A stretch of 64,000 nt of DNA from Candidatus Enterousia sp. (GCA_045592905.1 JAZNVR010000030.1:6029-70028); one strand, 5' to 3'; positions 13,612-55,823 are shown, counted from the first letter of the stretch. The notes: generated by a model from the sequence alone, not told the origin. Program-made: numbers and translations.

Positions 13612-13708
13612 ACAGACAAAATCCTTGGGTATATTTTACCATAAACGCCTTGCTTTTTTTAGTACAATTTATAATGATAATAACACAAACAGACAAAGGA
13701 ATATTATC

Positions 13709-14314
13709 ATGAAACAACCTATTATTGCATTGGCATTAATATTGACAGCACACCCTGTTATTGCATACGGTTATAATGGCACAGACATACAACAACGTGA
13801 TACATATGTCGGCATCAGAATACATAAAAACGAAAATATTGCATTTGAATACAAACCATCAGTCGGTGATGAAACGACAGTACGTCGGGACAGTTTCGGT
13901 ATTGGTGGCACATTTGGCAACAGATTAAGCGACCATATTACCGTTGAATTTGAGACATCATACACAGGTGCATCACAATCAAATTTTGATTATGATATAT
14001 GGTCAAACATGTTTAACACATATTTATTCCAAGAATATTCTGGTGCAATATCGCCATATATTGGTCTGGGCATTGGATTTGCCAGCATTTGGGGTGATAT
14101 TACAACAAATGAATATCAGATATCTGATTCTACGTTTGATTTATCTTTCCAAACCATGCTGGGGGTAAATTTTGCATTAAATGAACGTATTGATTTTAAT
14201 CTTGGTATAAAATATCAATATTACGGTGTACTTGAACACAACAAGTATGGAAAGACAACTGCTGATGCCACAGAATTTTACTTTGGTGCATCTTATAAAT
14301 TTGGATTAAAATAA
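13709..14314 (+). CDS. Outer-membrane beta-barrel protein (Omp25/31 / OMP_b-brl-like)
   Basis: Signal peptide MKQPIIALALILTAHPVIAYG, an alternating beta-strand pattern and an aromatic-rich C-terminus (FYFGASYKF). ATG at 13709 with an AAAGGA RBS. Confidence 0.55.
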   Translation: MKQPIIALALILTAHPVIAYGYNGTDIQQRDTYVGIRIHKNENIAFEYKPSVGDETTVRRDSFGIGGTFGNRLSDHITVEFETSYTGASQSNFDYDIWSNMFNTYLFQEYSGAISPYIGLGIGFASIWGDITTNEYQISDSTFDLSFQTMLGVNFALNERIDFNLGIKYQYYGVLEHNKYGKTTADATEFYFGASYKFGLK

Positions 14315-14341
14315 AAATCCCGCAAATGCGGGATTTTTTTA
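14314..14341. terminator. Bidirectional intrinsic terminator
   Basis: The sequence aaaaa-tcccgc-aaat-gcggga-ttttttt. Confidence 0.75.
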
Positions 14342-14344
14342 ATC

Positions 14345-14551
14345 TTAGAAACCGAAAACCATACGTTGTTTAGATTGACGTTTCTTTTCATTACGAACGG
14401 CTTCTTCTTTCAAGCGTTTACGTTTTGTTGTTGGTTTTTCAAAACGCTGACGTTCTTTCATTTCGCGGTACAGACCTTCTTTTTGTGATTTGCGTTTTGC
14501 AACACGCAATGCCTGTTCTACGTTATTATCGCGAACCAAAACTTTTACCAT
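14345..14551 (-). CDS. rpsU: 30S ribosomal protein S21
   Basis: The sequence [46 protein letters not shown]... is a typical S21. RBS AAAAGGGGG. Confidence 0.9.
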
Positions 14552-14625
14552 ATATATTCACCCCCTTTTGGCGAATTTGTATTTATCTTGTTAAAAAGGG
14601 GATTTATATCCCCTTTCCTGTGTTT

Positions 14626-14701
14626 TGGTGGAGCTGATCAGGCTCGAACTGACGACCCCCTGCTTGCAAAGCAGGTGCTCTACCAACTGAGCTACAACCC
14701 C
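14626..14701 (-). tRNA. tRNA-Ala (anticodon TGC), CCA encoded
   Basis: Reverse complement is GGGGTTGTAGCTCAGTTGGTAGAGCACCTGCTTTGCAAGCAGGGGGTCGTCAGTTCGAGCCTGATCAGCTCCACCA. The G3:U70 identity pair is present and the anticodon loop is ttTGCaa. Confidence 0.9.
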
Positions 14702-38270: not shown

Positions 38271-40601
38271 ATGAAAAGGAAATTAGTTTTTCTTGTCGCA
38301 CTGTTTATCGGTGTTGGCATTGCCAACGCTGCTGTTCGTGATGAAAAAACAATTGTACGGACTGCAAATTCCACACTGCAAAGAAGTGCAACATCACGAC
38401 AAAACACAACATCATCCCGATCATTAACCAGTCGTGCAAACACAAAAAACACCACCGCCAGGAAATCTGTATCTTCACGTGGGACACAACGTTCTGCCAC
38501 TGCACGCAGTGCCACAACAAAAACCGCGCAACGTCCCAACCGTCAACAAACATCTGTTGGACGCAGTTCTGCAATAAACATGTCAAACATTGTTGCATCC
38601 CCTGTTCGTGGTTTAAGTATTGCACGTGCATCAAACACCCCCAGCACTACAATTGACCCATCAACAACACTGGGTGCGGATTACACAAAATGTCGTGATG
38701 CATACTTTGCATGCATGGATCAATTTTGTGCTGTTGCAGATGAATCTTATCGCAGATGTGCGTGTTCATCACGTCTGACAACGGTTCAATCCCGCGAACG
38801 TGCATTGGTTCAGGCTGCAGAACAACTGACAGATTTCAAAAATCTGAATTTAGAAGTTATTAACAAAAGTTCCGATGAAGTAAAGGCTATGATTTCTGCA
38901 TCTGTGGGTGAATTGGCACAACAAAACGCCAAGGATACATCAGACAGTGCAAAACAATTATCCGGAATAAATGCAGTATTGGAAAAAACAAAACGTGAAT
39001 CTTTGGCAACCCAGGGTTCTTTGGATATTGCTGGCGATATAAATGAAATATGGTCCACCACCGATTTGGCCGGTGGTGTAAACATATCAAACCTGACGGG
39101 GGAAGCGTTATATAACGCAGTCCACGCCCAATGTGCAGAAATGGTGGATTCAATATGCCCCAGCACAGATGTACGTACAATGATTGTATCTGCGTACGGT
39201 ATGTATATTGAAAATGATTGTTCGTTAATATTAACCGGTCTGGATAAAAAATTAACTGCTGCCAATGCCACAATACGTGATGCGGAATACGAAATGGGCG
39301 ACAGACGACTGGAAAACTATAACGCCCACAATTCAACATCCATTAACGACTGTATTGCCAGGGTACGCATGGACATCACCGCAGATACCGCATGTGGCAA
39401 AGATTATGTTCATTGCTTGGATGTAACCGGTCGCTATCTAAACTATGATACAGGCGAACCAATTTATTCCGCTGAATTTTTCCAACTAAATACACTGACA
39501 TCATTATCCGGTGATTTATTAAAAAATCAAACAAATCGCTTGTTTATTGAACGCTTGAACAGTATGCGTCAATACGCACAAGGCAGTCTGGATACATGTC
39601 GTGATATTGCAGATGATGTATGGGATGAATTTATGCGTCAATCAATCACAGAAATTCACCAAGGACAACAAGAACGAATACGAATGGTCAAAGAAGAATG
39701 TTTAGATGTTGTAAATACATGCTATGACGAACAAAATCAAACATTAAAAGATTTTAGTAACACAGATGAAGCGTTATTATTGGGATCACGATTGGAATTA
39801 TCCGAACAATTATGCAAGGAAAAAATGAACACATGCAGTAATTTATATGGTGGTGGTCCAAACGGTATGGCAGAAATGTTAACCGCAATGCATGACATTG
39901 TCAGTCAACAAATCGCCCAACAATGTTTAATTGCACTGCAAGATTATTCTAAAAAATTATGTGCTGTATCTGGAAAAGATACATTGCATGCATACCCATA
40001 TGGCTGTCGTGCATACACACCTGGGACCCAGGAATATGCGATTAAACCAGAATGTAATAATGCCACCGCAACATCAACCGGTAAGGTTCTGACCAATAAG
40101 GTACAGCGATACACAACCGGCAGTTGTGGGAAACATTATACCTACTGTAACCCTGGATATTATATGGTACAAACAAATAATACGTATACACTGAATTCCG
40201 ACCGAGGAGAAGAGCATGCTAACACCTGCTTAAAATGTCCAGAAAACCATTACTGTAAAGGAGGAGGAACCATTGATGGCACCAAACCACAACTACTTGA
40301 CTGTGGTGCTGATTACGTTGGCAGTTTATATTATAAATTAGCAAATTATGCAAACGAAGTATGTGTCCGCCCATCCAAGGCAGATGAACCATTACCGCAC
40401 GCTGTATTACAAGATATAAACGTTGTAATGGATCAAATACGTGCAGATATGTCTGTTGAATTGGCCAAAGAATGCGAGCGTCTGGGTGGCAAATGGGTAA
40501 CAAACGCATTAAATGAAAATGATACAACAATAAAAACACGACATGCATTCTATTCTGCAACTGGTGCCAATACCCAATGGGGATACTGTGCATATCAATA
40601 A
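38271..40601 (+). CDS. Secreted Cys-rich protein (776 aa), CxDAYxxCMDxFC-head family, with a basic Arg/Ser/Thr-rich N-terminal tract and a eukaryote-like CxxCPxxxYC C-terminal region
   Basis: Signal peptide MKRKLVFLVALFIGVGIANA, R/S/T tract (RSATSRQNTTSSRSLTSRANTKNTTARKSVSSRGTQRSATARS...), head KCRDAYFACMDQFCAVADE, unit ADTACGKDYVHC, and late motifs CNPGYYM...TCLKCPENHYCKGGG and ECERLGGKW. Confidence 0.7.
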   Translation: MKRKLVFLVALFIGVGIANAAVRDEKTIVRTANSTLQRSATSRQNTTSSRSLTSRANTKNTTARKSVSSRGTQRSATARSATTKTAQRPNRQQTSVGRSSAINMSNIVASPVRGLSIARASNTPSTTIDPSTTLGADYTKCRDAYFACMDQFCAVADESYRRCACSSRLTTVQSRERALVQAAEQLTDFKNLNLEVINKSSDEVKAMISASVGELAQQNAKDTSDSAKQLSGINAVLEKTKRESLATQGSLDIAGDINEIWSTTDLAGGVNISNLTGEALYNAVHAQCAEMVDSICPSTDVRTMIVSAYGMYIENDCSLILTGLDKKLTAANATIRDAEYEMGDRRLENYNAHNSTSINDCIARVRMDITADTACGKDYVHCLDVTGRYLNYDTGEPIYSAEFFQLNTLTSLSGDLLKNQTNRLFIERLNSMRQYAQGSLDTCRDIADDVWDEFMRQSITEIHQGQQERIRMVKEECLDVVNTCYDEQNQTLKDFSNTDEALLLGSRLELSEQLCKEKMNTCSNLYGGGPNGMAEMLTAMHDIVSQQIAQQCLIALQDYSKKLCAVSGKDTLHAYPYGCRAYTPGTQEYAIKPECNNATATSTGKVLTNKVQRYTTGSCGKHYTYCNPGYYMVQTNNTYTLNSDRGEEHANTCLKCPENHYCKGGGTIDGTKPQLLDCGADYVGSLYYKLANYANEVCVRPSKADEPLPHAVLQDINVVMDQIRADMSVELAKECERLGGKWVTNALNENDTTIKTRHAFYSATGANTQWGYCAYQ

Positions 40602-41898: not shown

Positions 41899-44800
41899 TT
41901 ATATTCCCAATGAATGTGTCAACTTTATCATAAACACAGATTCATCACCAAAATAATCTGTATTATTTGGATTTTGACGATAAATAAATCCGATTGCACC
42001 ATTTGTAAATTCACCAAAATTATGACGATATGTTGCACCAAAACGTATTTCACGCTGTTCAGATGCCAATGATAAATCTGCAACATGTGCATCTATAACA
42101 TTCAGATTATATATACCGTTACCATTATCTGTAACATCATACTTTGCATACGAATAACGTAATACACCATCTGTTATCGCCAATGGCTGTGAAATACTGA
42201 AATCAAAGTTCCCCACCGTCAAACCAATACCAAATGCATTTGATTTTATTTCAGATAACCCCAGCACAAAATCACCAGACGCATCAGATACAGTATTGGC
42301 AAATGTTGCACGCATTGTTAATTCTATAAATTCAGAAAAATCATATTTTGCTTCTATATCTGTGTATATTGTTTGCCCTGCCCCAAAATTCAACAATCCA
42401 TCAGAATATGCACCTAATAATGTATTTGATTCTTGGACAACACCCACAGATGTATTTAAATCCAAACCATTTTTATTCCAAGAAATACCTGTTTCTAAAC
42501 CATGTGCCAACCCTAATTTTGCAGGCATATATTGTGCCGCAATCGTTGGGTCATTTTCCAACAATCCTTCGTCCGTAATTGCCCCAGATATTGCACGACC
42601 AGAAAAACCCCAGTTACCAATTTGATATTTAACATCTGTTGTTACGGCATTTGAAATCAATCCCATAATTGGATTGTGTAATCCAGAAAATCTAGAACTG
42701 CCATCTGTTAAATAACGTTGATACGTTGCACCAAAATTCCAATTTCCAGAATCATATGATAAACTTAAATTATCTAACCCACCCATATAATCAATGTATT
42801 CACGTGATGAAATCGCCATCGCAAAGTCTAAATTACCAATTTTTACAGATTGTTTATCATTACGTACAGTCTTTAAATCCCCCAATATATCACCCATATA
42901 TAACGCACTGGCATCTGATGCACCCAACGCAAATTCATTTTCCCAAACACGTGGCAAAGACATCTGACCATCAACACTGTGCAGAACATCAAAGAACGGT
43001 GCACTGATTGACGCACCACGCAAATTTAACGTTGCAGATGGCTTGAACACAGTATCAGATGCTGCACGCCAATAAGAATTACCATCCGCAGATACAATCT
43101 TGTTTTTATTACCATTATAATAGTATATAGAATGTCCAGGTGTCATTGCACGTTCCAAATTAATCAATCCATAACCATACACCTGTGCAAACGCATCCAA
43201 ATATTTATCAACACTTAACGTGTTTGCAAAATATTCTGGTGGCAATGCATATTTCTGCTTTAAATATGTAACCAATGTATCCTTGGTAAACGCATTCCCC
43301 GCAGCATCAGTTGCCAGCAAATAACCATCAGACGTCAACGCCAATAACTGAAATATTTCATTATTAGTCATGTATCCAAACGCCCCCTTGACAGCAGCCA
43401 CAGCACCTGCGGCTGATGCGGTTGCCATTTCTGCTGTTGGACCAGCAGCAGCAAAACACCATGGATCAACATTTCCGCCACCAACACCAGAAATACCACA
43501 TTGACGAGATGAATACGTAACCCCATCTTTTTTATACAAAGACAGATACAGCGGTCCATACTTTGTACCAAATCCATCACCATAACCAACAATCGTAGAT
43601 GCTTCTGTCGTACCTTTTGAACCGCTATGTTGTACTGCAACGACTGTCATAAAATTATGATTCAGATTATCATATCCATCAACCAACGGTGCGTAATTTT
43701 CAAACGTTGCATCTAAAACACTGGTGGACATGCCGTCCCCTGTACCAAACTTGAAATCGCCTGCTGGCATAACCAACATTGGCACCCCAGATGCCGCACT
43801 GGCTGGTCCATATCCACCAAACAACGCACTGGCATATGCCCCCTGGGCCAAGGACAGACCTGTATCAGTATTATTCGTATAATATTCATTAATCAAATTA
43901 ACATACGCAGAACTGTCTTTCAAATTATTAAGTCCTGCATATCCCAGCACGCCAGAAATTTGCGTATAGTTTGCATTTTTTGACGCTTCCAGCACAGATA
44001 CATTTGCAATAACATCACTGCCGGTTGATTGATACGCATATCTAAGTGCCTCAAAATTTCTGAACGCTGCATCCTGCAATGTTTTTGCGTTATACAAATT
44101 ACCATTATTTAGCACATAAACCGCATCAATCGTATTTCCACCACTGGTATTAACATACAACAAACCATCTGTATCTTGATAAATCGCAATATCTGAATCG
44201 GTACATCCATCATCAGCACACTGACCAACCAACATTTGACTATTTGCATCCAGTTTATATGTTGTATCACCAACCGTTACAACAGGTTCTGTTTCAGATG
44301 TTTCATCCAGTGCTAATTTAAGATTATATGTTACACCATTCAAGACAATTACATCCCCAGAACCAATAACATCATTATTATTTGCATCTGACAATGTACC
44401 GACGACAGTACCACTGGTCGGGTTATCTATGTTTACCCACTGTTGACCATTACCTGTTCTAAAAATTCCCAATCGTCCATCTGGTACAAATCCATAAAAA
44501 TCACCATATGGACGTGCGTCTGTTTCACTTTCTGCACCTTCCCAACCTGCGACAAATTTTCCCAATGCACTGTCGTAAACAGACGCAAATGGATTCATTG
44601 CTGTACCGCTGCCAGATAAATCAAAAAAAGTTTTTTCTTCACCCAATGCATTAGTTGCCTGATTCGGATTATCGTAATTCAGATATTTATCAACCAAATA
44701 AGTCTGTGCATCCGCAGCAGCCGACGTAGCATATAAAATTCCATTACCACGTGCAGCCGACCCAGTTGGATTTAATCCATTCGCAGTAACCAGCGACACA

Positions 44801-45639
44801 GACACAGGTTCGCCACCATCAGCACCATTTGCAGACCACAAAGGATTCTTGGTTGTTGCATCACGAAAAATCCCCATACCGGTATACCCATTTGCAAATG
44901 AAGAATAACCATGCATCATTAACAGATAATTTTGCACCTGAAAATTTGTAATTCCATCTACAATATAGTTGTTTTCTGGCTGTGCACTTGGATTAAAATA
45001 ATTGAAATCTAGTTTATGCATCGGATTAGATAACCAGCCTTCTAAATTCTTCTGATATAAATCACTATTAGCATCAACCTTGCCATCCGTCTTGTTTACA
45101 TACACAGGACTGTATGGCACTGTTGTCAACAGACTGCCAGGTCCACTGGTTCCACCATCATTTGGATTATTATCTGGACGACTGCCCCCACCTTGAACAG
45201 CATTATTTTCATTACCTGGGTCAAAAACATCCGTTAACAAAAACAGACCACCTACAACAACAGCGGCACCTGCCGCTGCTAATGTAATATTTTGTGCAGA
45301 CGACAGCCCGCTGAACAATCCGCCAGTTGGCTTGGGCTTTGTCCTGTTATTATAAATCTTGATTTGATTATCGCATTTTGATGCATCTGCACCATACATT
45401 TGCAAAATTTGTGCGGCCCGCACATCATTATTCATCAATGCAGTACAAACAATTGACAGTCCTGTTGCATCAACAAAGTTAATATCAGCACCTGCATTAA
45501 CCAGACTTTGCACCTGTTGTACATCCGCATTCTTGGCCGCAGCCAACAACTGTGCAGCCATTGTAAATTCAGGCGTTGCCCCAAATGACGCAATCGGTGC
45601 AAAAAACAACGAAAACAACAAAATTCTGATAAATTTCAT
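41899..45639 (-). CDS. Large exported protein (1246 aa): signal peptide, ankyrin repeats, hydrophobic Gly/Ala segment, long passenger-like region, and a C-terminal beta-barrel-like (autotransporter-like) domain
   Basis: Signal peptide MKFIRILLFSLFFAPIASFGA. ANK-like sequence LLAAAKNADVQQVQSLVNAGADINFVDATGLSIVCTALMNNDVRAAQILQMYGADA. Hydrophobic segment ITLAAAGAAVVVGGLFLL. The last ~330 aa show an alternating beta-strand pattern but end ...LTHSLGI, with no terminal aromatic residue. Confidence 0.65.
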   Translation of the reverse strand: MKFIRILLFSLFFAPIASFGATPEFTMAAQLLAAAKNADVQQVQSLVNAGADINFVDATGLSIVCTALMNNDVRAAQILQMYGADASKCDNQIKIYNNRTKPKPTGGLFSGLSSAQNITLAAAGAAVVVGGLFLLTDVFDPGNENNAVQGGGSRPDNNPNDGGTSGPGSLLTTVPYSPVYVNKTDGKVDANSDLYQKNLEGWLSNPMHKLDFNYFNPSAQPENNYIVDGITNFQVQNYLLMMHGYSSFANGYTGMGIFRDATTKNPLWSANGADGGEPVSVSLVTANGLNPTGSAARGNGILYATSAAADAQTYLVDKYLNYDNPNQATNALGEEKTFFDLSGSGTAMNPFASVYDSALGKFVAGWEGAESETDARPYGDFYGFVPDGRLGIFRTGNGQQWVNIDNPTSGTVVGTLSDANNNDVIGSGDVIVLNGVTYNLKLALDETSETEPVVTVGDTTYKLDANSQMLVGQCADDGCTDSDIAIYQDTDGLLYVNTSGGNTIDAVYVLNNGNLYNAKTLQDAAFRNFEALRYAYQSTGSDVIANVSVLEASKNANYTQISGVLGYAGLNNLKDSSAYVNLINEYYTNNTDTGLSLAQGAYASALFGGYGPASAASGVPMLVMPAGDFKFGTGDGMSTSVLDATFENYAPLVDGYDNLNHNFMTVVAVQHSGSKGTTEASTIVGYGDGFGTKYGPLYLSLYKKDGVTYSSRQCGISGVGGGNVDPWCFAAAGPTAEMATASAAGAVAAVKGAFGYMTNNEIFQLLALTSDGYLLATDAAGNAFTKDTLVTYLKQKYALPPEYFANTLSVDKYLDAFAQVYGYGLINLERAMTPGHSIYYYNGNKNKIVSADGNSYWRAASDTVFKPSATLNLRGASISAPFFDVLHSVDGQMSLPRVWENEFALGASDASALYMGDILGDLKTVRNDKQSVKIGNLDFAMAISSREYIDYMGGLDNLSLSYDSGNWNFGATYQRYLTDGSSRFSGLHNPIMGLISNAVTTDVKYQIGNWGFSGRAISGAITDEGLLENDPTIAAQYMPAKLGLAHGLETGISWNKNGLDLNTSVGVVQESNTLLGAYSDGLLNFGAGQTIYTDIEAKYDFSEFIELTMRATFANTVSDASGDFVLGLSEIKSNAFGIGLTVGNFDFSISQPLAITDGVLRYSYAKYDVTDNGNGIYNLNVIDAHVADLSLASEQREIRFGATYRHNFGEFTNGAIGFIYRQNPNNTDYFGDESVFMIKLTHSLGI

Positions 45640-45763: not shown

Positions 45764-46336
45764 TTATCTGCAACGGCCATTACCATATGTACAAACATAG
45801 ATACCAGATACCGTAAAACGTTTTGCTGTATCACAAGGTTGTGGTTGTGGCTGTGGTTGTGGCTGTGGATTTTGCACAACATAAACCGTATCATGTACAA
45901 CCTTTGGCTGTGGTTTTGGCTGTGGTTTTGGTTGTGGTTTTGGTTGTGGTTTAACAACTTCTATAACCAAAGTATCCTTGCGTGAATTATTTTCCACAAC
46001 AACATCATTGTTATTTTCAACAACAACTGTATTACCAACTGCAACTTTGCTGTTATTTTTTACACGTGCATTGCCACCAGCAGACACACTGTTTTTATTA
46101 GATACACTGACATCATTGCCAACTGCAACTCTGCTGTTATTTTTTACACGAACATCATTACCAACAACGATATTGTTATTATTTACAACTTCAATTTTTG
46201 GTACCTTTTTTTCGCATGGTTTTTTATTGTCTGATTTACCAGAACACTGTGTAACACCAAACAATGTTGTCAAAACAATCAAAGATCCCGCAGTAAAACA
46301 TAATGCGATATCTCTTACTTTATTATTAGAAGCCAT
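45764..46336 (-). CDS. Membrane-anchored repeat protein (190 aa): 14-aa beta-solenoid-like repeats plus (PQPK)n and (PQ)n tracts
   Basis: N-terminal anchor IALCFTAGSLIVLTTLFGV. Repeats VGNDVRVKNNSRVA / VGNDVSVSNKNSVS / AGGNARVKNNSKVA / VGNTVVVENNNDVV. Tracts PQPKPQPKPQPKPQPK and PQPQPQPQPQPQP. RBS AAAAGGGG. Confidence 0.6.
   Translation of the reverse strand: MASNNKVRDIALCFTAGSLIVLTTLFGVTQCSGKSDNKKPCEKKVPKIEVVNNNNIVVGNDVRVKNNSRVAVGNDVSVSNKNSVSAGGNARVKNNSKVAVGNTVVVENNNDVVVENNSRKDTLVIEVVKPQPKPQPKPQPKPQPKVVHDTVYVVQNPQPQPQPQPQPCDTAKRFTVSGIYVCTYGNGRCR
45836..45951 (-). repeat. Short tandem coding repeats (6-bp PQ and 12-bp PQPK units)
   Basis: The + strand shows ggttgtggttgtggctgtggttgtggctgtgg at 45836-45869 and ggctgtggttttggctgtggttttggttgtggttttggttgtggttt at 45905-45951. 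Confidence 0.85.
45976..46168 (-). repeat. Periodic coding repeat (14-aa units; 32-bp near-identical block repeated at an 84-bp offset)
   Basis: The block ccaactgcaact(t/c)tgctgttattttttacacg occurs at ~46034 and ~46118. Confidence 0.75.
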
Positions 46337-46434: not shown

Positions 46435-46464
46435 TTGCTATGTTTACGCCATTTGTGTTATAAT
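46435..46464 (+). promoter_or_regulatory. Sigma70 promoter with extended -10 (TTGCTA-18-TGtTATAAT) for the four-gene Cys-rich operon
   Basis: TTGCTA at 46435-40, TG at 46456-57 and TATAAT at 46459-64. It shares the string tgtgttataat with the promoter at 25128-38. Confidence 0.5.
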
Positions 46465-46483: not shown

Positions 46484-47344
46484 ATGAAAAACACGATTTT
46501 AATTTTATCGGCATTATTTATGATAACGCCTGCTGCTGATGCAGCGTCTAAGTGTTCACGTGCGAATTTAACCCGTTGTTTAGATTCTGCATGTGCAATA
46601 AACATATCATCAAATCCATCTGCCCGATGTCAATACTGTGGTTCGGCCAGTGCTGGCATACCGAATGAAAAGAATGCAATGCGTGCAGTTGCGGCTGGTG
46701 CGTCTGCAAAATATAACATTTCTGACAAGGATTTAAAAAAAGCACCAACAGATCCTGGCGAACGATACATGTGGGCAACTGCGAAATGCATTGGCAAGGT
46801 TGCTGGATGTACTGCTGATGATGTAACAGATGTGTATGACCCATTAATTGAACAATCATGCAAGGCTGCGGGCATATCTGCAAAAATGGAAAGATTACAG
46901 GCAGATGCCAGAAAAACAAAAACCCAAACGGAATGCGAATCGGAAATAACATCATGCTTATTGGATTCTAAGTATTGCAATCCAGACTATCGCAATTGTG
47001 AAGCAAATGAAAATTTTGATAAATTTTTTGCTGCATGCGGTGTTGAATCAACGGGGTGCGATGAATTTGTATCTGGAATTCGTGAAAAATTGTTAAGTGC
47101 ACGTGATTCTGCGATTAAGAACGCAGATGAGGCGTTGGCTAAGATAGTTGCCACGTACCAAAACACACGTGAAAAGAAGTTGGCTGATATCAAAAGCGGT
47201 TGTACAGACGACAAAGAATTTACCAACTGCGTTGAAACCGTATGCGACAGAAACATGCCAAACAAATGTGCAGAAAATTCAGAAAAGGTTTCTGCAGGTT
47301 TACTATGCCAGTTTTATAAAACTGCATGCAAAACACTAAGATAA
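46484..47344 (+). CDS. Secreted Cys-rich helical protein (286 aa), first gene of a four-gene operon
   Basis: Signal peptide MKNTILILSALFMITPAADA. I count 20 Cys by hand. Motifs KCSRANLTRCLDSAC, SCLLDSKYCNPDYRNC and NCVETVCDRNMPNKC. Confidence 0.65.
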   Translation: MKNTILILSALFMITPAADAASKCSRANLTRCLDSACAINISSNPSARCQYCGSASAGIPNEKNAMRAVAAGASAKYNISDKDLKKAPTDPGERYMWATAKCIGKVAGCTADDVTDVYDPLIEQSCKAAGISAKMERLQADARKTKTQTECESEITSCLLDSKYCNPDYRNCEANENFDKFFAACGVESTGCDEFVSGIREKLLSARDSAIKNADEALAKIVATYQNTREKKLADIKSGCTDDKEFTNCVETVCDRNMPNKCAENSEKVSAGLLCQFYKTACKTLR

Positions 47345-47354
47345 TGGAACAAAT

Positions 47355-48893
47355 ATGATTAAAGGCAACATGACTTTCGGTATAAAATATTTAACATCTG
47401 CATTTGGTTGTCTGGTTATATTGCTGTGCACAACAACGTCTGCGACATCTGCAATGGTTCAGGTTGAAAACAAATCTGCACAATTTGAAGTTGCAATAGA
47501 TGATGTCCAAGAAACAATTGGTTCCAACAGTGAAAGCGAACTGGCTGAAAAAATTCGCAAACAACGTGCTGCATTTAATGCCCAATCTGCCCTGACATCA
47601 TCCAAGGCAGCTGCGGCTGTTGTTAATACAGGCAATAATGAATGCGACAAAAAATTACGTTCATGTATGCAGTCAAAATGTGGCAAAGATTTTTCTAAAT
47701 GTGCGGGTGATACAGATACACTATGGGGTGATAAACTGGACTTATGTCGTATGGATATAAAGTGTACAGGCGAAGAATATCGCTTGTTTACCGCAGAAAT
47801 CAAGGCCGATCGTGATCAAAATGCGATGCTGTTGCACTATAATTCTATTATTGATTGTGGAAATCAATACAACGATTGCATAATAAAAGAATGTGGAAAA
47901 ACATTTACAAATTGCTTGGGCAAATCTGCGGGTGATGCAGCAATCCAAAAATGTTCAACAATTGCACGAAATTGTACAGAACAAGACAGTGGCATGTCAT
48001 CACGTGCAATGGAAACATTTGCAAACCTGCGTCAAGATGCGGAAAAAGCAATTGTACGTGACGAAAAACGTTTACATGAATTACGTGACACAATGCGTTC
48101 TGCATGCAATCGTCTGGGTGCGATGTTTGATGAACGAACACTGGACTGCGTATATTCTATTGAATTTCGTGCAGGTGGCGACAATACATTATACGCATCT
48201 AAAAAGGCATATGCCGGTTCAACATTTAACTGTGATCAAAACTGGTTTGGTGTTGATGTAACAACATTTATGGAAAATGCATTTCGTTTAACACGTGCCC
48301 AAACATCTGCATCATCTGCGGCATTGGGTTCTGGTGTTGGTATGGCGGCGGGTGCGATAACATCTGGTGCGATTGATCGTGCGGTTGATCGTGCCAAGGC
48401 CGAACGTGCACTGGGTTCAGAATTATGCGATTATACTGGTGGTAAATGGAACAAGGCATTTAATTCATGCAACTGTCCAAAGGGTGCAAAATTTGACAAG
48501 GAACAAGGATGCGTTGCCAAAGACGACGATTTTGGTGTAACAATGGGTAAAATACAGTCTAACGATAATGACGATTCTGATGACGAAGAAGAATTTGATA
48601 CAGATAACCTGTTATCTGAATTAAGTAATTTATCAGAAGACGAGTTAGCCAAATATAAAAACGACCCATACATACAAAAAATTGCCACAGAAAACGGCAT
48701 AGATTTAGAAAACCTGTCTCCTGATGATATATCAACATTACTAAGCAACGAAGAATTGGATTTAAGCGAAATAGATATGGAAGGACTACCTAAAATAGCC
48801 CAACGATATCTAAAAAATCGTGCAAAACGCGCAGCAAAGGGTAAATCTAATTTTATAGATAGAATAGTAGATAAAAAACTAGGTGGCGAATAA
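47355..48893 (+). CDS. Secreted Cys-rich protein (512 aa) with CGKxF units, a glycine-zipper, one C..G.W[ND]..CxC..C unit and an acidic Leu/Ser-rich tail
   Basis: Motifs CMQSKCGKDFSKC, CIIKECGKTFTNC, SAALGSGVGMAAGAITSGAI, LCDYTGGKWNKAFNSCNCPKGAKFDKEQGCV and the tail DDSDDEEEFDTDNLLSELSNLSEDEL.... There is a 10-nt gap to the upstream gene. Confidence 0.65.
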   Translation: MIKGNMTFGIKYLTSAFGCLVILLCTTTSATSAMVQVENKSAQFEVAIDDVQETIGSNSESELAEKIRKQRAAFNAQSALTSSKAAAAVVNTGNNECDKKLRSCMQSKCGKDFSKCAGDTDTLWGDKLDLCRMDIKCTGEEYRLFTAEIKADRDQNAMLLHYNSIIDCGNQYNDCIIKECGKTFTNCLGKSAGDAAIQKCSTIARNCTEQDSGMSSRAMETFANLRQDAEKAIVRDEKRLHELRDTMRSACNRLGAMFDERTLDCVYSIEFRAGGDNTLYASKKAYAGSTFNCDQNWFGVDVTTFMENAFRLTRAQTSASSAALGSGVGMAAGAITSGAIDRAVDRAKAERALGSELCDYTGGKWNKAFNSCNCPKGAKFDKEQGCVAKDDDFGVTMGKIQSNDNDDSDDEEEFDTDNLLSELSNLSEDELAKYKNDPYIQKIATENGIDLENLSPDDISTLLSNEELDLSEIDMEGLPKIAQRYLKNRAKRAAKGKSNFIDRIVDKKLGGE

Positions 48894-48906
48894 GCAGGCA
48901 TCAATC

Positions 48907-51642
48907 ATGAAAAAATTTTTATTATATTTTTTAACAATCACAGCAACCACCCTGCCCACATTTGGTGCCACTGATTCTAGGAACAACGAATTTTTATTTT
49001 CTGTCAAGGCAAAACTTACAGGCTATACTGACATGGCTCCTGGGGCAAAACCTCAGGCAAAAATAACTTCACCATCCGATTGTAAATTTCTTACTTACAG
49101 CAAAAACATAAAAGATAACTCAAACCCTCAAATTTCTACCACTATAACAGACACGTTTGACACATCTGTTACATGTCCGACAGGCACAAGCAGCATTACA
49201 CTAGAGTTTATATCAAACAAAACACCTGTTGGTTCACCTAAATACAATATCCAAAATCCGACACATACAATAGAATTAAAACCAAACAAAAAGAATTATA
49301 AATTACCAGATATCGTATTGGAACAAACGAACAAACCAACATCCACTTCAGATGACAAAAAAACAACATCAGTAATTGCACGAGGCACAACAAATAACAC
49401 ATCTGCAGACAACAGCCCCAGTTTTGCATCACAAAGTGCTGCAATAAATGCAAGCAACGATACCAGTTTACGTGCAAATTCAACACCTGAACAGACACCC
49501 GCAAAATCAGAACGTCAACAGGCCGTTGAACAAAATATGAAAAAATCATTAACGGTTCAGAATACGCAAAAGGCACCAAACGTAAAGTTAGATGATCCAA
49601 AACTGTCTGAATCAAATCCATTGGCAGAAACCACAAAAAAACAAAACGAAAAAGCAGCGGCTGATTTAGAAAATAATTTTGACTTTGCATCTGCCAGTGC
49701 AGGCACAAACAATGAAACCATTGCTCGCAGTGGCTTGGGTGCAACACCAACGGAACAGACACCTGAAAAATCAGAACGCCAACAGGCCATTGAACAAAAT
49801 ATGAAAAAATCGCTGACTGTAACACAAAAATCATCTGTACAAAAGACAGGAATCAGTCAATCACCAGCAGAAAAAGAACGTCTGGTAAGAACAGCACTTA
49901 CAAAATTCTGTGATGATGCTGGATTCGTGTATAAAAAGAATGGTACAGAAACTGCATCTTTGGGCGAAATTGATGCTACATGCAACGAAAATTCTGCAAG
50001 TCAAATTTATTTCTACTGCTATAAATACAAAAATTTAACAATACCAGAAAATGAAATCCGAACACATCTTGCATATTATTGTTTTACAAATAAAACAACT
50101 CCTGTAAATCCAAAACAAAAGCAACGTCCATCTGACCATTATGACAAGAAAAAAGCAGATCGTGCAGCCAAACAAGAAGAAAATAAAGTCGGCAAACGTT
50201 GCGAAATTGAAAACGCAACATCTGCAAAATACGTCAAAAAACCGTCTGGAAAAATTGTTTGTGAACCAGATGACTGTATTTGCGGATATGAAATTGTTGA
50301 AAAGAATTTCCAATATTCATGCCAAAAATGGCGTCAAAATAACCCAAGTTGCTATATGCACGAAAGTATGCCTGACAACGCAACCAAGGCACACTATGAA
50401 TGCAACAAAAACAACAAAAAAATATGCGTTGTTGACGAATGCAATTACAAGACACATTATCTGAACAAAGAAAAAAATAAATGTATCGCAAAAAGTACTG
50501 TAAAATGTGCCAATGATGAAATTGTTAATAACGTTGGTCAATGCCAGAAAAACCCAACCGATTTGGCAAAACCAAACGACCCCAGCAAGCAAGAAATGTC
50601 ACAGGCAGACATAGAACGGGACAATTGTGTCAGAAATCAACAGAAAAACCATACAAAGTATGAAAACAATAAATGCGTTTGCGAAAGTGCAGATTACGAA
50701 ATGCAAGACGATGGTGTTTGTACATTAAAACGTGCAAAATGTCTTGAAAAAGATCATACCAAATATGTCAAGGGTCGCTGTGTCTGCGAAAGCGACAAAT
50801 ATGAAATGCACTCCGATAACAATTGTTATATGACACGTGCTGCACTGGATGCCGAAGCATCAGAAATGGAAGATGCCGACAATGCAGCAAAAGACGAACA
50901 GTTGTTCTTGGAAACACGCCAAAAAGCATGTGCAACAGATAATCTGGGCGAATGGGATGAGAAAACAGGCAAGTGTAAATGTAAAACAGGATATAAACTG
51001 GGTGATGATTATGCATGTCATGCAACAAACAAAACTGTGACACAAGAAACATTACAGGCACTGTGTTCTAATACAAATGGCGATTGGGACAAAAACAAGT
51101 GTAAATGTAAAAACGAAACACATACTTTTGATAAAGAAAAAGGATGTATACCGGATGACAAAAAGGTTAAACGTGCAGAAAAGCAACAAGAAAAAGAAAT
51201 TGCATCATTAAATGCAGACAGGGACAATGCTGAAAGAAAGGCTTTTTGTGATAATACTGGCGGTGACTGGAACGAAAAAACAAATAAATGCAAGTGCAAG
51301 AAAGGTTTTGAACTGGTTGATGACGGTTGCGAAGAAACAGAAAAATCACAAACAAACACCAAGAAAAAAGAACTGTGCGAAAAAAATGGCAACTGGAACG
51401 ACGCATTAAATACATGCAATTGTAAAGGAAAAGATTTCTTTGATGATGACGAAGGATGTGTTTCAGAATCATCAGAATTCTTGTCTTTACAAAACACATT
51501 TAATACGATGAAGGAACAATTAACACAAAGAATTACCGAAATTGATGCAGAACTGGCCGCAGCAGAGGAATCAGATGCTGAATCAGACGCTGAATCAGAT
51601 GCTGAATCAGATGCAGAAACCGAAACAGAACAACAGTCATAA
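48907..51642 (+). CDS. Secreted mosaic protein (911 aa): Thr/Ser/Asn-rich region, an 88-aa internal duplication, many Cys units including four C..G.W[ND]..CxC..C units, and an acidic (ESDA)n tail
   Basis: The ATG at 48907 gives the signal peptide MKKFLLYFLTITATTLPTFGA. Motifs: KSERQQA(V/I)EQNMKKSLTV x2, HTKY..xxCVCES..YEM x2, ACATDNLGEWDEKTGKCKCKTGYKLGDDYAC, LCSNTNGDWDKNKCKC..., FCDNTGGDWNEKTNKCKC... and LCEKNGNWNDALNTCNC.... Confidence 0.65.
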   Translation: MKKFLLYFLTITATTLPTFGATDSRNNEFLFSVKAKLTGYTDMAPGAKPQAKITSPSDCKFLTYSKNIKDNSNPQISTTITDTFDTSVTCPTGTSSITLEFISNKTPVGSPKYNIQNPTHTIELKPNKKNYKLPDIVLEQTNKPTSTSDDKKTTSVIARGTTNNTSADNSPSFASQSAAINASNDTSLRANSTPEQTPAKSERQQAVEQNMKKSLTVQNTQKAPNVKLDDPKLSESNPLAETTKKQNEKAAADLENNFDFASASAGTNNETIARSGLGATPTEQTPEKSERQQAIEQNMKKSLTVTQKSSVQKTGISQSPAEKERLVRTALTKFCDDAGFVYKKNGTETASLGEIDATCNENSASQIYFYCYKYKNLTIPENEIRTHLAYYCFTNKTTPVNPKQKQRPSDHYDKKKADRAAKQEENKVGKRCEIENATSAKYVKKPSGKIVCEPDDCICGYEIVEKNFQYSCQKWRQNNPSCYMHESMPDNATKAHYECNKNNKKICVVDECNYKTHYLNKEKNKCIAKSTVKCANDEIVNNVGQCQKNPTDLAKPNDPSKQEMSQADIERDNCVRNQQKNHTKYENNKCVCESADYEMQDDGVCTLKRAKCLEKDHTKYVKGRCVCESDKYEMHSDNNCYMTRAALDAEASEMEDADNAAKDEQLFLETRQKACATDNLGEWDEKTGKCKCKTGYKLGDDYACHATNKTVTQETLQALCSNTNGDWDKNKCKCKNETHTFDKEKGCIPDDKKVKRAEKQQEKEIASLNADRDNAERKAFCDNTGGDWNEKTNKCKCKKGFELVDDGCEETEKSQTNTKKKELCEKNGNWNDALNTCNCKGKDFFDDDEGCVSESSEFLSLQNTFNTMKEQLTQRITEIDAELAAAEESDAESDAESDAESDAETETEQQS
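49489..49830 (+). repeat. In-frame duplication at a 264-bp (88-aa) offset
   Basis: The block gaacagacac...tcagaacg(t/c)caacaggcc(g/a)ttgaacaaaatatgaaaaaatc starts at 49489 and again at 49753. Confidence 0.8.
51568..51615 (+). repeat. 12-bp tandem repeat x4 (gaatcaga(t/c)gc(t/a)) encoding ESDAESDAESDAESDA
   Basis: Read directly from the sequence. Units start at 51568, 51580, 51592 and 51604. Confidence 0.9.
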
Positions 51643-51648
51643 AAAACA

Positions 51649-53790
51649 ATGAAAAAATTATTTTTATCATCTTTGCTAGTTATATTATCAATACCTGCCA
51701 TCGCAGCAGATGCCCCAGGATTGGCGGCACGACCTGTGCCCACACTAACTGTTGGGCCATCTGCCATGGATACACCAGTAAATCTAAATCTGAAACCAGG
51801 CAGTCCTTTTGCATCTGCAAAAACACCAGATGAAGCATGGCAAATATTTGAATCAGAAACACAAAAAATACTGGATAAAGTAAAAAATAAACTGAGACAT
51901 TCTGAATATAAAAAGTTATCCGCATTACGTGACGAAATGCTGGCCGAAAAGCTAAGTGCAACTGAACTGAATAAAAAAACAACGACAGAAAAGACAAAGA
52001 AAGAAAAAACAAAGAAAGAAAAGAAAGATAAAGACAGCAAAAACGATACCGAAGAAGACGCAAGCAAGGTTGTTACACAACGTAAATTATCCAAAGAAGA
52101 ACAAGAAAAGAAAATTTCTGAATTACGTGACAACGCAACCGCAATGAAAGAAAAAGAACAATCGTTGGCAAACAGAACATTGGGTGCTGCTGCGATTGGT
52201 GCGACTGGGATTGGCGGAATGCAGTTGGCATCTGCAATGTCTGAACAACAGGCAGACGCTGATGCGGAACAAGCCATGCGTGCATATCTGGCAACATTTA
52301 CATGTAATTATGCCGACGGCAAATATTTCAAGGGTGGCGAAAAAGACATTGAATTACCAGGCAGTGCAGAATTGATAAACCTGTACAGCGAATATGTTAC
52401 ATTGGCAAATGATTTGAAAACCCGCAAAACAGCATTGGGAATAAAACCAGGTATTGAATCAGAAAGTATTCTGGACGGTGCCACATCTGGTCTGTATGAC
52501 GATGTTGGTATGGGCAAAACAACTGGTGCATATGCATCATTGGCACGTGCATTACAAAATCCAGATGGCGAAGATGCCAAAATGTGGGCTGCACAAAAAG
52601 AAGAAACGGCAAAAAAACTAAAAACAGGTGCAATTACGGCTGGTGTCGGTGCAGTGGGTGGTCTGATTGGAAATATTGCCATTAACGCCAGGGCCCCAAA
52701 AGAACGCTCGGCTGAAATAAATGCAAAATACGAAAAACTGAAAAAAGAAATTGTAATAATACAAAAAAAGATTAATCGTCTGCCAAAACCAAAATGCGAA
52801 GATTTTAATGCAACAGGTGTATGGGATGACTGTAAATGTAACGAAGCAAATCATATTTTCTCAAACAGTCGTTGCGTAGATTGTGGTCAAGGATACAAAG
52901 CCATCGGGAACGAATGTGTTCTAAAAGAATGTGAATTAACCGGTGATGTTGTTACAGGTCTATATGATTGCGAATGTCACCCAGATGCAGAACAGCAAGG
53001 AAATGACTGTGTATGCAAACTGACTGGTATGAAAAAAGAAAATTATTGTGAATGCGTTGATAACGCAACTAAAAATGCACAAGACGTATGTGAATGCAAT
53101 GACGGTTACGAAGAATCAGATGGAAAATGCGTTCCAAGGGCACAATGTCAATTAAGCGATACATTGGCAGATATAGAACAATGTCAATGCGTGGAAAATG
53201 CAAATGATGATGATAATGACAGTCTTTGCGAATGCAATGACGGCTATGAAGAATCAGATGGAAAATGCGTTGAAATCGTTGCCGAAAATCCAAAACCAAT
53301 CGTAATCAATGTGCCTGCGGATACATTCTTTAACAGTGGGGATTATACAATATCCGATGAAAACAAACAACAATTGATTGCTGATATTATGGATACAATC
53401 AAAGCACAGGCACCAAATGAAGATGCAGCAACACTGTTATCGTCATCATGCATAACAATAACCGGATACGCAGACAGATCTGGGGCACACTTAAAAAACG
53501 AAAGATCAAACCAAAGATTGTCCGAAAGACGTGCACAAACGGTCGCAGACATCTTGAAACAAAAAGCCAAGGATGAATTACAAGACGGTGTTAATCTGCG
53601 TGTATCGGGTCGTGGCCATACAGATTGTACCGAGGCACAATATCCAACACCAACAGATTATGCAAAGTGCCGTCGTGTGGATATTTCTATAAATTCTGGA
53701 ACATGTAATGGGTCAACCCCAGATTCAGGGCAAACATTACAAAATGTAATAGATGGTGTTGCGTCTGTAATAAACAGACCACAACAATAA
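51649..53790 (+). CDS. Secreted/anchored protein (713 aa) with a Lys-rich coiled coil, two glycine-zipper segments, EGF-like Cys units and a C-terminal OmpA-like peptidoglycan-binding domain
   Basis: Signal peptide MKKLFLSSLLVILSIPAIAA. Glycine-zippers TLGAAAIGATGIGGMQLASAM and GAITAGVGAVGGLIGNIAI. Cys units CEDFNATGVWDDCKCNEANHIFSNSRC and CECNDGYEESDGKCV x2 (138-bp offset). OmpA_C-like ITGYADRSG...NQRLSERRAQTVADIL...CRRVDISI. Confidence 0.75.
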   Translation: MKKLFLSSLLVILSIPAIAADAPGLAARPVPTLTVGPSAMDTPVNLNLKPGSPFASAKTPDEAWQIFESETQKILDKVKNKLRHSEYKKLSALRDEMLAEKLSATELNKKTTTEKTKKEKTKKEKKDKDSKNDTEEDASKVVTQRKLSKEEQEKKISELRDNATAMKEKEQSLANRTLGAAAIGATGIGGMQLASAMSEQQADADAEQAMRAYLATFTCNYADGKYFKGGEKDIELPGSAELINLYSEYVTLANDLKTRKTALGIKPGIESESILDGATSGLYDDVGMGKTTGAYASLARALQNPDGEDAKMWAAQKEETAKKLKTGAITAGVGAVGGLIGNIAINARAPKERSAEINAKYEKLKKEIVIIQKKINRLPKPKCEDFNATGVWDDCKCNEANHIFSNSRCVDCGQGYKAIGNECVLKECELTGDVVTGLYDCECHPDAEQQGNDCVCKLTGMKKENYCECVDNATKNAQDVCECNDGYEESDGKCVPRAQCQLSDTLADIEQCQCVENANDDDNDSLCECNDGYEESDGKCVEIVAENPKPIVINVPADTFFNSGDYTISDENKQQLIADIMDTIKAQAPNEDAATLLSSSCITITGYADRSGAHLKNERSNQRLSERRAQTVADILKQKAKDELQDGVNLRVSGRGHTDCTEAQYPTPTDYAKCRRVDISINSGTCNGSTPDSGQTLQNVIDGVASVINRPQQ

Positions 53791-53794
53791 AAAT

Positions 53795-53821
53795 AGTCCG
53801 CCAAATGGCGGATTTATTTTT
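53795..53821 (+). terminator. Intrinsic terminator ending the four-gene operon
   Basis: Stem tccgcc-aaat-ggcgga followed by tttatttt. Confidence 0.65.
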
Positions 53822-54782: not shown

Positions 54783-54863
54783 AATATTTCTCTCTTACTT
54801 TTTTTTAATTTTATCAAATAAACAGTTTTGATTCAAGTCAGGATTTATGATAAAATTAAATTG

Positions 54864-55823
54864 ATGTCAAATGTTGTATTAGAATCTTTATTAAAACCAT
54901 TAGAAGAATTCTACAAACCATCGTTCGTAGAAGAAATCGCAATTAACCATGCTGGCGAAGTATGGATGCGATTGCATGGTGCACGTGTTCCATGGGTGTC
55001 ATACCAGTCAGATGTGTTAACAAAACAATATCTGATTGATTTAATACATACTGTTGCAAATATTTATGAACGGCCATTTGATCCAATACATGGAATGCCT
55101 GTTGTTTATGCAACACTGCCTGGCAACCATCGTTTTACTGCAATTGCAGGCCCAAATGTTCAATATGATGAACATGATGTAACCGGTGGTGTGGCATTAA
55201 ATATTCGTGGTGGCGGTGCACACGAAACCAGTTTTGAAAATTATCACTTAAGTCGTGGAAAAAAACTATTAACAGTAAAATCACGACAAACTGTTCGGCC
55301 AGATGACCCATATGACCGACTGATGTCCGCAATAAATGACGGCAGCCCAATATTAATCAGTGGTGCAACATCAACAGGAAAAACAACTTTTCTGAATCAT
55401 ATGTTAACATTAATTGATAAAAACAGTCGTGTTATTACTGTTGAAGATGCACGTGAAATTCGTGTTCCCCAGGCGAATCGGGTACACTTTGTTTTATCAC
55501 GTACAGAACAAACAAATGACTTTAATTATGCCCGACTGCTGGATTTAGTTGTGCGTATGACCCCAGATGTAATTATTGGTGGTGAAATTTCAACTGACAA
55601 CGCATCTGTACTATGGGAAATGTTGGGTACAGGACACGATCATTTCTATACAACAATTCATGCAGAAAGTGCAGAAGCCGCATATGCAGCATTCGCAGAC
55701 AGAATTTTACATACACAGCCGGCATATGACCGCACAGATTTAATTGCTGAAATGAAAAAGAAAATTCGTGTTGTACAATTATCACGTGATGGTTCACTGC
55801 GTGCCGTTACCGAAGTCGTATAA
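54864..55823 (+). CDS. virB11: VirB11/TrbB-family type IV secretion ATPase (orphan in this window)
   Basis: LLKPLEEFYKPSFVEEIAINHAGEVWM... matches the VirB11 N-terminus. Walker A GATSTGKTT, Asp box ITVEDAREI, Walker B DVIIGGEI and His box TTIHAES are present. ATG at 54864. Confidence 0.8.
   Translation: MSNVVLESLLKPLEEFYKPSFVEEIAINHAGEVWMRLHGARVPWVSYQSDVLTKQYLIDLIHTVANIYERPFDPIHGMPVVYATLPGNHRFTAIAGPNVQYDEHDVTGGVALNIRGGGAHETSFENYHLSRGKKLLTVKSRQTVRPDDPYDRLMSAINDGSPILISGATSTGKTTFLNHMLTLIDKNSRVITVEDAREIRVPQANRVHFVLSRTEQTNDFNYARLLDLVVRMTPDVIIGGEISTDNASVLWEMLGTGHDHFYTTIHAESAEAAYAAFADRILHTQPAYDRTDLIAEMKKKIRVVQLSRDGSLRAVTEVV

Follow-up and report, generated by a model that had tools for sequence, protein, structure and literature searches.

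Modules of the epidermal growth factor (EGF) type are characteristic of extracellular proteins in eukaryotes; their bacterial families are few and have been little catalogued. The EGF domain has six cysteines paired in three disulfides (1–3, 2–4, and 5–6), and its C-terminal half follows the PROSITE EGF_2 signature, C-x-C-x2-[GP]-[FYW]-x4-8-C. In bacteria, the Myxococcus surface receptor TraA contains tandem Cys-rich repeats that are thought to form a stalk. The module described here, of ~30 residues, was found in a 64,000-nt chromosomal stretch of Candidatus Enterousia sp. (GCA_045592905.1, JAZNVR010000030.1:6029–70028; G+C content ~38%), the whole of which is called the window. It is encoded on the plus strand by three consecutive genes, for proteins of 512 (47355–48893), 911 (48907–51642), and 713 residues (51649–53790), the last of which carries an OmpA-like domain near its C-terminus. 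The profile comparisons point to a rare four-Cys derivative of EGF that is unseen by Pfam and NCBIfam, and they define the part of EGF to which it corresponds.

The module followed the consensus [L]-C-x2-4-[ST]-G-G-x-W-x2-7-C-x-C-x2-G-[YFW]-x5-9-C. Among 59 diverse units, the four cysteines were invariant and the Gly and Trp residues were at least 90% conserved; with only four invariant cysteines, the six-Cys, three-disulfide pattern of EGF was not present. No Pfam or NCBIfam model covered the module, and NCBIfam scans of distant carriers were likewise empty. When single units were searched against Pfam, the only matches were to EGF-type models, all below threshold and all in the C-terminal half of the unit (cEGF for 9 of 22 units, best E = 1.7e-4; FXa_inhibition for 8 of 22; Pvs28 EGF for 3 of 22). 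The EGF gathering threshold was reached by none of them, and the best whole-protein cEGF match scored 15.1 bits against a cut-off of 26.6.

The unit profile gave thrombomodulin EGF5 (PDB code 1adx) as the best PDB match, with an E-value of 0.0033, along with EGF domains of LDLR. From 1.84 billion representative proteins it also retrieved a matrilin-like multi-EGF eukaryotic protein (P0036, E = 4.2e-6), the repeats of which are bona fide EGF domains (cEGF, 9e-40). The alignment of the module with these repeats by hhalign reached 95% (P = 3.4e-8), and in a control in which the non-Cys columns of the target were shuffled and the Cys columns kept, none of the 150 trials attained its score (z = 9.2). 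In this alignment, Cys1 of the module corresponded to EGF Cys3, the CxC pair to EGF Cys4-x-Cys5, and the last cysteine to EGF Cys6, and the GGxW strand lay on the first strand of the EGF major hairpin. Since hhalign set Cys1 of the module at EGF Cys3, the module appears to be an EGF-like domain without the first loop, Cys1–Cys2. The likeness to EGF that a sequence-only reading of the window had remarked on therefore holds at the profile level. The C-terminal signature of EGF was present in CKCKTGYKLGDDYAC and CKCKKGFELVDDGC of the 911-aa protein and twice, as CECNDGYEESDGKC, in the 713-aa protein, and was not kept by other units, for example CNCPKGAKF.

The structure predicted by AlphaFold2 from the unit alignment was composed of a short helix and two β-hairpins, with a predicted local distance difference test score (pLDDT) of 83.4. 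The top Foldseek matches of this model were the EGF domain of FXa, a fibrillin cbEGF domain, Pvs25, and LDLR EGF-A. Because the Foldseek matches were insignificant, the fold assignment rests on the profiles. When compared with the EGF-like families cEGF (PF12662), FXa_inhibition (PF14670), and thrombomodulin-EGF5 (PF09064), the module shared the CxCxxG[YFW]x(5-9)C half and the hairpin preceding it, and the occurrence in tandem arrays of exported proteins; it may also share their fold, to judge by the two hairpins predicted for it. It differed in having four cysteines, with the short helix and the GGxW strand in place of the Cys1–Cys2 loop, in its implied Cys1–Cys2 staple, which is absent from EGF, and in its almost entirely bacterial distribution.

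The unit peptides quoted in the sequence-only reading were all present, essentially where it had placed them. A six-frame translation of the window, searched with the regular expression C.{2,8}G.W[ND].{0,8}C.C.{6,16}C, contained six occurrences of the motif C..G.W[ND]..CxC..C, all within the genes of the 512-, 911-, and 713-aa proteins. When each locus protein was shuffled 20,000 times with its composition preserved, the expression matched no more than 3 of the shuffles, and none for the 512- and 911-aa proteins; chance similarity among Cys-rich sequences was ruled out by these tests. To avoid circularity, a leave-out hidden Markov model (HMM) was built from 35 distinct units, all of which belonged to 911-aa protein orthologues. 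The single unit of the 512-aa protein (CDYTGGKWNKAFNSCNCPKGAKFDKEQGC, 48426–48512) matched this model with 32.1 bits and an E-value of 3.4e-9, which places the units of the 512- and 911-aa proteins in one true module family, as had been proposed. The 911-aa protein contained four GGxW-CxC units (50929–51018, 51064–51147, 51247–51330, and 51376–51459) of 22–34 bits each, parted by K/E-rich linkers, and four of the five Trp residues of its open reading frame (ORF; 48883–51642) fell within the motif. When the 512- and 911-aa proteins were compared by BLASTP, essentially only the module aligned (best pair, 45% identity over 38 residues, 5e-6). A second type of Cys module, C..NAT.AKY....G..C...C.CGY......C, was observed at 50200–50322 of the 911-aa gene; similar segments were noticed by eye in a 501-aa gene of L004 and in the N-terminal extensions of the OmpA-like homologues P0087, P0090, and P0094.

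Two kinds of weaker unit were placed by profile–profile comparison. Upstream of its GGxW units, the 911-aa protein had two HTKY-type four-Cys units (HTKY...CVC...YEM...C; 50626–50721 and 50740–50826), which the sequence-only reading had overlooked. The unit that it had quoted from the 713-aa protein was the first unit of a Cys-rich stalk (52795–52875); the peptide was present, and its match to the leave-out HMM was insignificant (6.8 bits, independent E-value 0.28). The consensus of this unit across more than 700 homologues was C..atGT[YF]P[DN]CxC, and Trp was rare, occurring in the close orthologues of the window protein and in two other listed sequences. The 59-unit GGxW alignment (A3) was compared with the other unit types by hhalign, the test that had been named as able to refute the relation among units. 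The HTKY-type units reached 76% (P = 2.3e-5; 1 of 150 Cys-preserving shuffles reached the score, z = 3.6) and the first stalk unit of 43 OmpA-like homologues reached 83% (P = 8.8e-6; 0 of 150, z = 3.9). Because these scores exceeded those of nearly all Cys-preserving shuffles, both unit types are probably distant relatives of the GGxW module, beyond their common cysteines. What remains of the proposed OmpA-like copy is this distant kinship, and the unit is best regarded as a distinct, widely conserved subtype.

The segment ECERLGGKW of a 776-aa protein (CERLGGKW at 40473–40496, plus strand), which had been taken for a truncated copy, was not a demonstrable unit. It scored 2.2 bits against the unit HMM (E ~4–7), a chance level when taken by itself, and neither a CxC nor a fourth cysteine followed at module spacing. 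This segment, which lies at the C-terminal end of the 776-aa protein, might conceivably be what is left of a unit; the idea is kept alive because P0020 and P0025, very long proteins with N-terminal regions homologous to the 776-aa protein and its paralogues, end in arrays of ~8–10 GGxW units. The 776-aa protein (38271–40601, plus strand) and two other Cys-rich exported proteins, of 861 (32975–35560, minus strand) and 729 residues (35582–37771, minus strand), were paralogues (BLASTP 1e-10 to 1e-46), and an N-terminal C[RK]xxYxxCMDxFC motif was visibly common to the 729- and 776-aa proteins. In L006, another low-GC genome, three homologues of the 776-aa family stood in tandem, one of which was P0020 with ~8 terminal GGxW units; an alphaproteobacterial-type ROS/MucR regulator was among the neighbouring genes.

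The module is rare and extends beyond the genus Enterousia. The unit profile found 51 of the 1.84 billion representative proteins at E ≤ 1e-3, mostly bacterial. The carriers included mutually unrelated bacterial architectures (P0020, P0022, P0024, P0025, P0030, and P0045). The GGxW units were interleaved with CarboxypepD_reg domains in P0023, P0026, P0042, and P0046, formed lipoprotein-like arrays in P0024, P0030, P0034, and P0043, and were combined with a cytochrome c domain in P0022. P0045 came from a metagenome-assembled genome (MAG) of Bacilli.

The 713-aa protein consisted of a signal peptide, a K/E-rich region, a core with two Gly-zipper-like segments, a Cys-rich stalk, and the OmpA-like domain, and the same layout was found in more than 719 homologues. 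Its stalk (52795–53271) was a chain of C-x10-CxC units, was ~95–170 residues in length across the family, and lay between the Gly-zipper core and the OmpA-like anchor, ending ~20 residues ahead of the latter. The 169-residue stalk was predicted by AlphaFold2 as a rod composed entirely of short β-hairpins (pLDDT 84.6). As a continuous chain of hairpins predicted to form a rod, it may resemble the TNFR cysteine-rich domains (CRDs), furin-like repeats, and laminin-type EGF stacks. The Foldseek matches of the model in the PDB were almost exclusively multi-EGF, TNFR, furin-repeat, and ephrin-CRD proteins, with TNFR1, the insulin-receptor CR region, RSPO2 Fu1-Fu2, and the EphA2 CRD among the best. 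These matches were insignificant (E ≥ 0.02, TM values of 0.13–0.23; for TNFR1, E = 0.14–0.3 and TM ~0.17), and the stalk differed from these stacks in the spacing and number of cysteines per repeat and in lacking any sequence-level match. No locus protein or single unit matched the Pfam TNFR model. TraA is alike as a bacterial envelope or surface protein with a Cys-rich repeat stalk; the likeness is one of description only, the phylum and the anchoring system are different, and homology is not implied.

The OmpA-like peptidoglycan-binding domain (PF00691; 53326–53625, residues 560–659) passed its Pfam cut-off of 27.2 bits with a score of 34.9 (2e-8), and OmpA C-terminal domains in the PDB matched the 713-aa protein with E-values of 0.002–0.07. 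The protein is comparable to the OmpA, MotB, and TssL anchors and to YiaD-like lipoproteins in this domain and in its Gly-zipper-like segments, and the NCBIfam model YiaD_Gzip_OmpA matched it at 8.5e-10. However, every NCBIfam match was far below the cut-off, and the ~160-residue Cys-rich stalk and the conserved core of ~190 residues were without counterpart in these anchors. An A/G-rich tandem repeat of 15 and 30 nt (51974–52043) encoded a K/E-rich (KKEKT)n run near the N-terminus of the protein.

The stalk terminated in a six-Cys supermodule, C.LTG..CxC..NAT..CxCN.GY..C, which is the terminal stalk unit of the 713-aa family and occurred as a single copy in most homologues. In the window, the stalk protein alignment gave two tandem copies, copy 1 (CKLTG..CEC..NAT..CECNDGYEESDGKCV) at 53014–53133 and copy 2 (CQLSD..CQC..NAN..CECNDGYEESDGKCV) at 53146–53271; tandem copies were also present in L005 (97% relative) and L001 (84% relative), with the first two-thirds diverged. 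The sequence-only reading had described a 138-bp in-frame duplication at this place. Only the 45-nt segment 53089–53133 was 93% identical to its counterpart (53227–53271) at that spacing; the remainder of the period was ~30% identical without gaps, and belongs to an older, diverged copy. In copy 1, L005 and L001 read GAAGAATCAAATAATCAATGCGTT, whereas the window read GAAGAATCAGATGGAAAATGCGTT, which was identical to copy 2 in all three. The difference comprised five changes within 7 nt (53119–53125) against a 96% identical background. This patch is best explained by a recent, short gene conversion (7–24 nt; maximal tract 53110–53133) in the lineage of the window, probably from copy 2 to copy 1, a direction that was assigned because L001 served as the outgroup. 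No other direct sign that modules had recombined with one another was found, and this one was intragenic.

The three genes were consecutive, as had been noted earlier, and were joined upstream by a fourth, for an exported protein of 286 residues (46484–47344) with 20 cysteines (7% of residues) and no GGxW unit. The four genes were co-directional, with gaps of 6–13 nt. A promoter-like site with a TG extension (46435–46464; 10 of 12 positions, a consensus match only) preceded the block, and a terminator-like hairpin (53795–53814; 8-bp stem with 5 G–C pairs, T tail) followed it. The 286-aa gene was syntenic in L001 and L004, and the gene order was kept in JAZOTB010000029.1, in which the orthologue of the 911-aa protein was 79% identical, and in a second Enterousia MAG. 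Because of the short gaps, the promoter- and terminator-like sites, and the conserved synteny, the four genes look like one operon. Hydrophobic N-terminal export leaders were readable in all block proteins.

The 512-aa protein contained a conserved Cys-rich core, a Gly-rich segment, the single GGxW-CxC unit, and an acidic tail. It had more than 740 homologues, every one unnamed or annotated as hypothetical; the best 120 listed were 53–99% identical across most of the core. Pfam, NCBIfam, and PDB sequence searches and an exact-sequence look-up of this protein gave no match, nor did a PDB sequence search of the 911-aa protein. The ORF list begins the 911-aa gene at GTG 48883 (919 residues); the ATG at 48907, at which the orthologues begin, was taken as the start. 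The 512- and 713-aa families, with more than 700 clusters each, are strongly conserved and entirely uncharacterised. Gly-zipper-like segments (for example ALGSGVGMAAGAITSGAI, GAAAIGATGIGGMQLASA, and GAITAGVGAVGGLIGNIAIN) recurred in the 512-aa protein (48316–48380, residues ~322–340), in the 713-aa protein (52180–52250 and 52630–52710), and at the C-terminus of the 729-aa protein, and may be membrane-embedded or oligomerising helices. In the 911-aa gene, a 76-nt direct repeat (49481–49556 and 49745–49820; 86% identity, spacing 264 nt) was located in the N-terminal half, and the 979-aa orthologue P0001 had one extra copy of this ~88-aa TPE(K/Q)SERQQA(V/I)EQNMKKSLTV segment. A 12-nt tandem repeat, GAATCAGATGCT, in 4.2 copies (51568–51618) encoded the acidic (ESDA)n tail of the 911-aa protein, and two copies fewer were present in the 96%-identical strain L005. 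In L004, the extra 501-aa gene (13137–14642) separated the orthologue of the 911-aa gene from that of the OmpA-like gene.

The other products of the window included ParC, RpoA, PBP1, LpxI, a SurA-like protein, ClpB, and an autotransporter. The presence of PBP1, LpxI, the SurA-like protein, and the autotransporter indicates a diderm organism with peptidoglycan and lipopolysaccharide. Enterousia is placed in Rs-D84, an alphaproteobacterial order of uncultured gut bacteria with genomes smaller than ~1 Mb (PMC12306168). These bacteria are anaerobes without a TCA (tricarboxylic acid) cycle or a respiratory chain, standard transporters are missing, and numerous unexplained membrane proteins have been proposed to serve cell–cell interaction, together with a dependence on partner cells (PMC12306168). 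The operon takes ~7 kb and the wider Cys-rich locus ~21 kb of such a genome of less than 1 Mb. No description of these proteins was found in the literature on Enterousia, Rs-D84, or bacterial EGF-like repeats.

With a probability of roughly 60%, we regard the unit as an inherited bacterial four-Cys module of EGF type, which serves as a bead of envelope stalks and is shared by the three genes through ancient accretion. The module family, its kinship with EGF, its age, the variation in copy number, and the conversion patch were shown by the analysis; the disulfide pairing, the cellular location, and the function as a spacer are predictions. The exported units would be stapled by Cys1–Cys2 and Cys3–Cys4 disulfides, would fold as two short β-hairpins, and would act as rigid stalk or spacer beads in the envelope proteins of the block. 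In the 713-aa protein, the chained variant would form a rod between the Gly-zipper core and the peptidoglycan-binding domain. In the 911-aa protein, charged linkers would part the units from one another and a C-terminal helix would follow them, and the unit of the 512-aa protein would be a similar bead. A spacer or stalk role is the most likely one, as the stalk adjoins the peptidoglycan-binding OmpA-like domain and the core is strongly conserved.

Several points weigh against this assignment. The envelope location, periplasmic or surface, was deduced solely from the adjoining OmpA-like domain, and the link between the OmpA-like and GGxW units depends only on moderate profile–profile scores (83%, z = 3.9). 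All Foldseek matches were insignificant (best E-value 1.2 with the unit model and 0.02 with the stalk model), and the EGF profile used in hhalign came from one protein and was of low diversity (Neff 1.7). The putative pairing of Cys1 with Cys2 and of Cys3 with Cys4 was inferred from the EGF alignment. The role of the conserved Trp may lie in binding and not be purely structural. In an anaerobe without a respiratory chain, moreover, the machinery for oxidising so many cysteines is not obvious (PMC12306168).

In the strongest competing interpretation, the same structure has another function: the units would be ligand-binding or adhesive, the GGxW surface would recognise a partner cell, a host glycan, or a protein, and the bacterium would be an epibiont or parasite with the fast-evolving 911-aa protein as its surface adhesin. 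We consider this appreciably less probable than a spacer role, and a binding function of the GGxW face in the 911-aa protein, for example in partner-cell contact, is nevertheless a serious alternative. The 911-aa protein had only 15 homologues (29–79% identity, none annotated) and a variable number of units, the Gly and Trp residues were nearly invariant, and related proteins interleave the units with CarboxypepD_reg domains, which are β-sandwiches. The partner-cell dependence proposed for Rs-D84 (PMC12306168) is in keeping with such a function. However, the peptidoglycan-binding domain next to the stalk of the OmpA-like protein suggests that the stalk is periplasmic, and the 911-aa protein showed no recognisable outer-membrane anchor or secretion signal. 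A more speculative proposal, which we consider doubtful, is that the module is a hitherto undescribed, bacteria-specific "half-EGF" domain and that the operon encodes an envelope-spanning, disulfide-rich, peptidoglycan-anchored apparatus for partner-cell attachment or exchange in Rs-D84, with stalk length tuned by the number of units. The profile, boundaries, and copy-number behaviour of the module provide a handle for its annotation and for tests of envelope building or partner contact.

The second component of the preferred assignment, ancient sharing of the module, was examined at the DNA level and among orthologues. The six units were 47–65% identical in DNA and 23–58% in protein when compared pairwise, and the repeat finder saw no long tracts common to them. 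For every unit of the 911-aa protein, the best score was with the unit at the same position in the orthologue of another species (0.85–1.0, normalised), whereas the scores with neighbouring units were at most 0.56 and those with the unit of the 512-aa protein were ~0.47; concerted evolution within the 911-aa protein was ruled out on this ground. The unit of the 512-aa protein directly followed an AERALG anchor in orthologues down to ~60% identity. The number of units varied between species: orthologues of the 911-aa protein contained 2–6, and among the best 120 homologues of the 512-aa protein, 46 had 1–4 units and 74 had none. The four units of the 911-aa protein were the same in L005 (96–97% identical strain). 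Because of the 47–65% DNA identity and the positional orthology, the sharing of units among the three genes is interpreted as ancient accretion followed by divergence, and not as recent exchange between genes. Recombination was apparent only within genes, in the units gained or lost from species to species and in the one gene-conversion patch.

These results bear directly on the sequence-only proposal that modules had been exchanged within the locus by duplication or recombination. As a recent process between genes, the exchange was not supported; copy-number change and the conversion patch were intragenic. That recombination within the locus had recently copied units from one of the three genes to another was suggested by their adjacency and common direction, by the BLASTP alignment of the 512- and 911-aa proteins essentially through the module alone, and by the genuine conversion patch inside the OmpA-like gene. 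It was largely refuted, and is now improbable, given the low DNA identity without long shared tracts, the closeness of the units to positional orthologues of other species, and the retention of the 512-aa protein unit in place in orthologues at 61% identity. In addition, more than 700 homologues have the orthologue of the OmpA-like unit, mostly without the Trp. Mini-modules of neighbouring genes thus need DNA-level and orthologue checks before they are read as recent shuffling.

A zinc-knuckle-like module, in which the four cysteines bind metal and form no disulfides, would suit an anaerobe without a respiratory chain, for which oxidative folding is less obvious (PMC12306168), and the CxC with the two distal cysteines could in principle chelate Zn. 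This is very improbable, as all carriers had export leaders, the profile aligned with Cys3 to Cys6 of disulfide-bonded EGF, the predicted hairpins matched the EGF topology, and neither His/Asp co-ligands nor zinc-ribbon spacing was present. Least probable of all is horizontal acquisition from EGF domains of a eukaryotic host, suggested by the EGF-type similarity and the gut association of the organism, since EGF Cys1 and Cys2 are missing from the module, the GGxW half is peculiar to it, no unit reached any Pfam EGF threshold, the module occurred in several unrelated bacterial architectures (NCBI, JGI/IMG, ENA, and Logan assemblies), and eukaryotic proteins gave only marginal cross-matches through the C-terminal half.

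When all locus proteins were scanned against Pfam and NCBIfam, nothing matched apart from OmpA, VirB11, and, weakly, ankyrin. The VirB11-like ATPase (54828–55823; TIGR02788, E = 2e-43, below the cut-off) adjoined the block in L001 and L004 as well; a link to type IV secretion was considered and dropped, as no other gene of such a system was present in the window and the neighbours were housekeeping genes. The ankyrin matches were to the N-terminal region of a 1246-aa protein with an export leader (41899–45639, minus strand; Ank_4, E = 0.001), the synteny of which was conserved; beyond this region, the protein matched no family. A 190-aa protein (45764–46336, minus strand) contained (KPQP)n and (PQ)n runs and repeated VGN(D/T)V..NN motifs.

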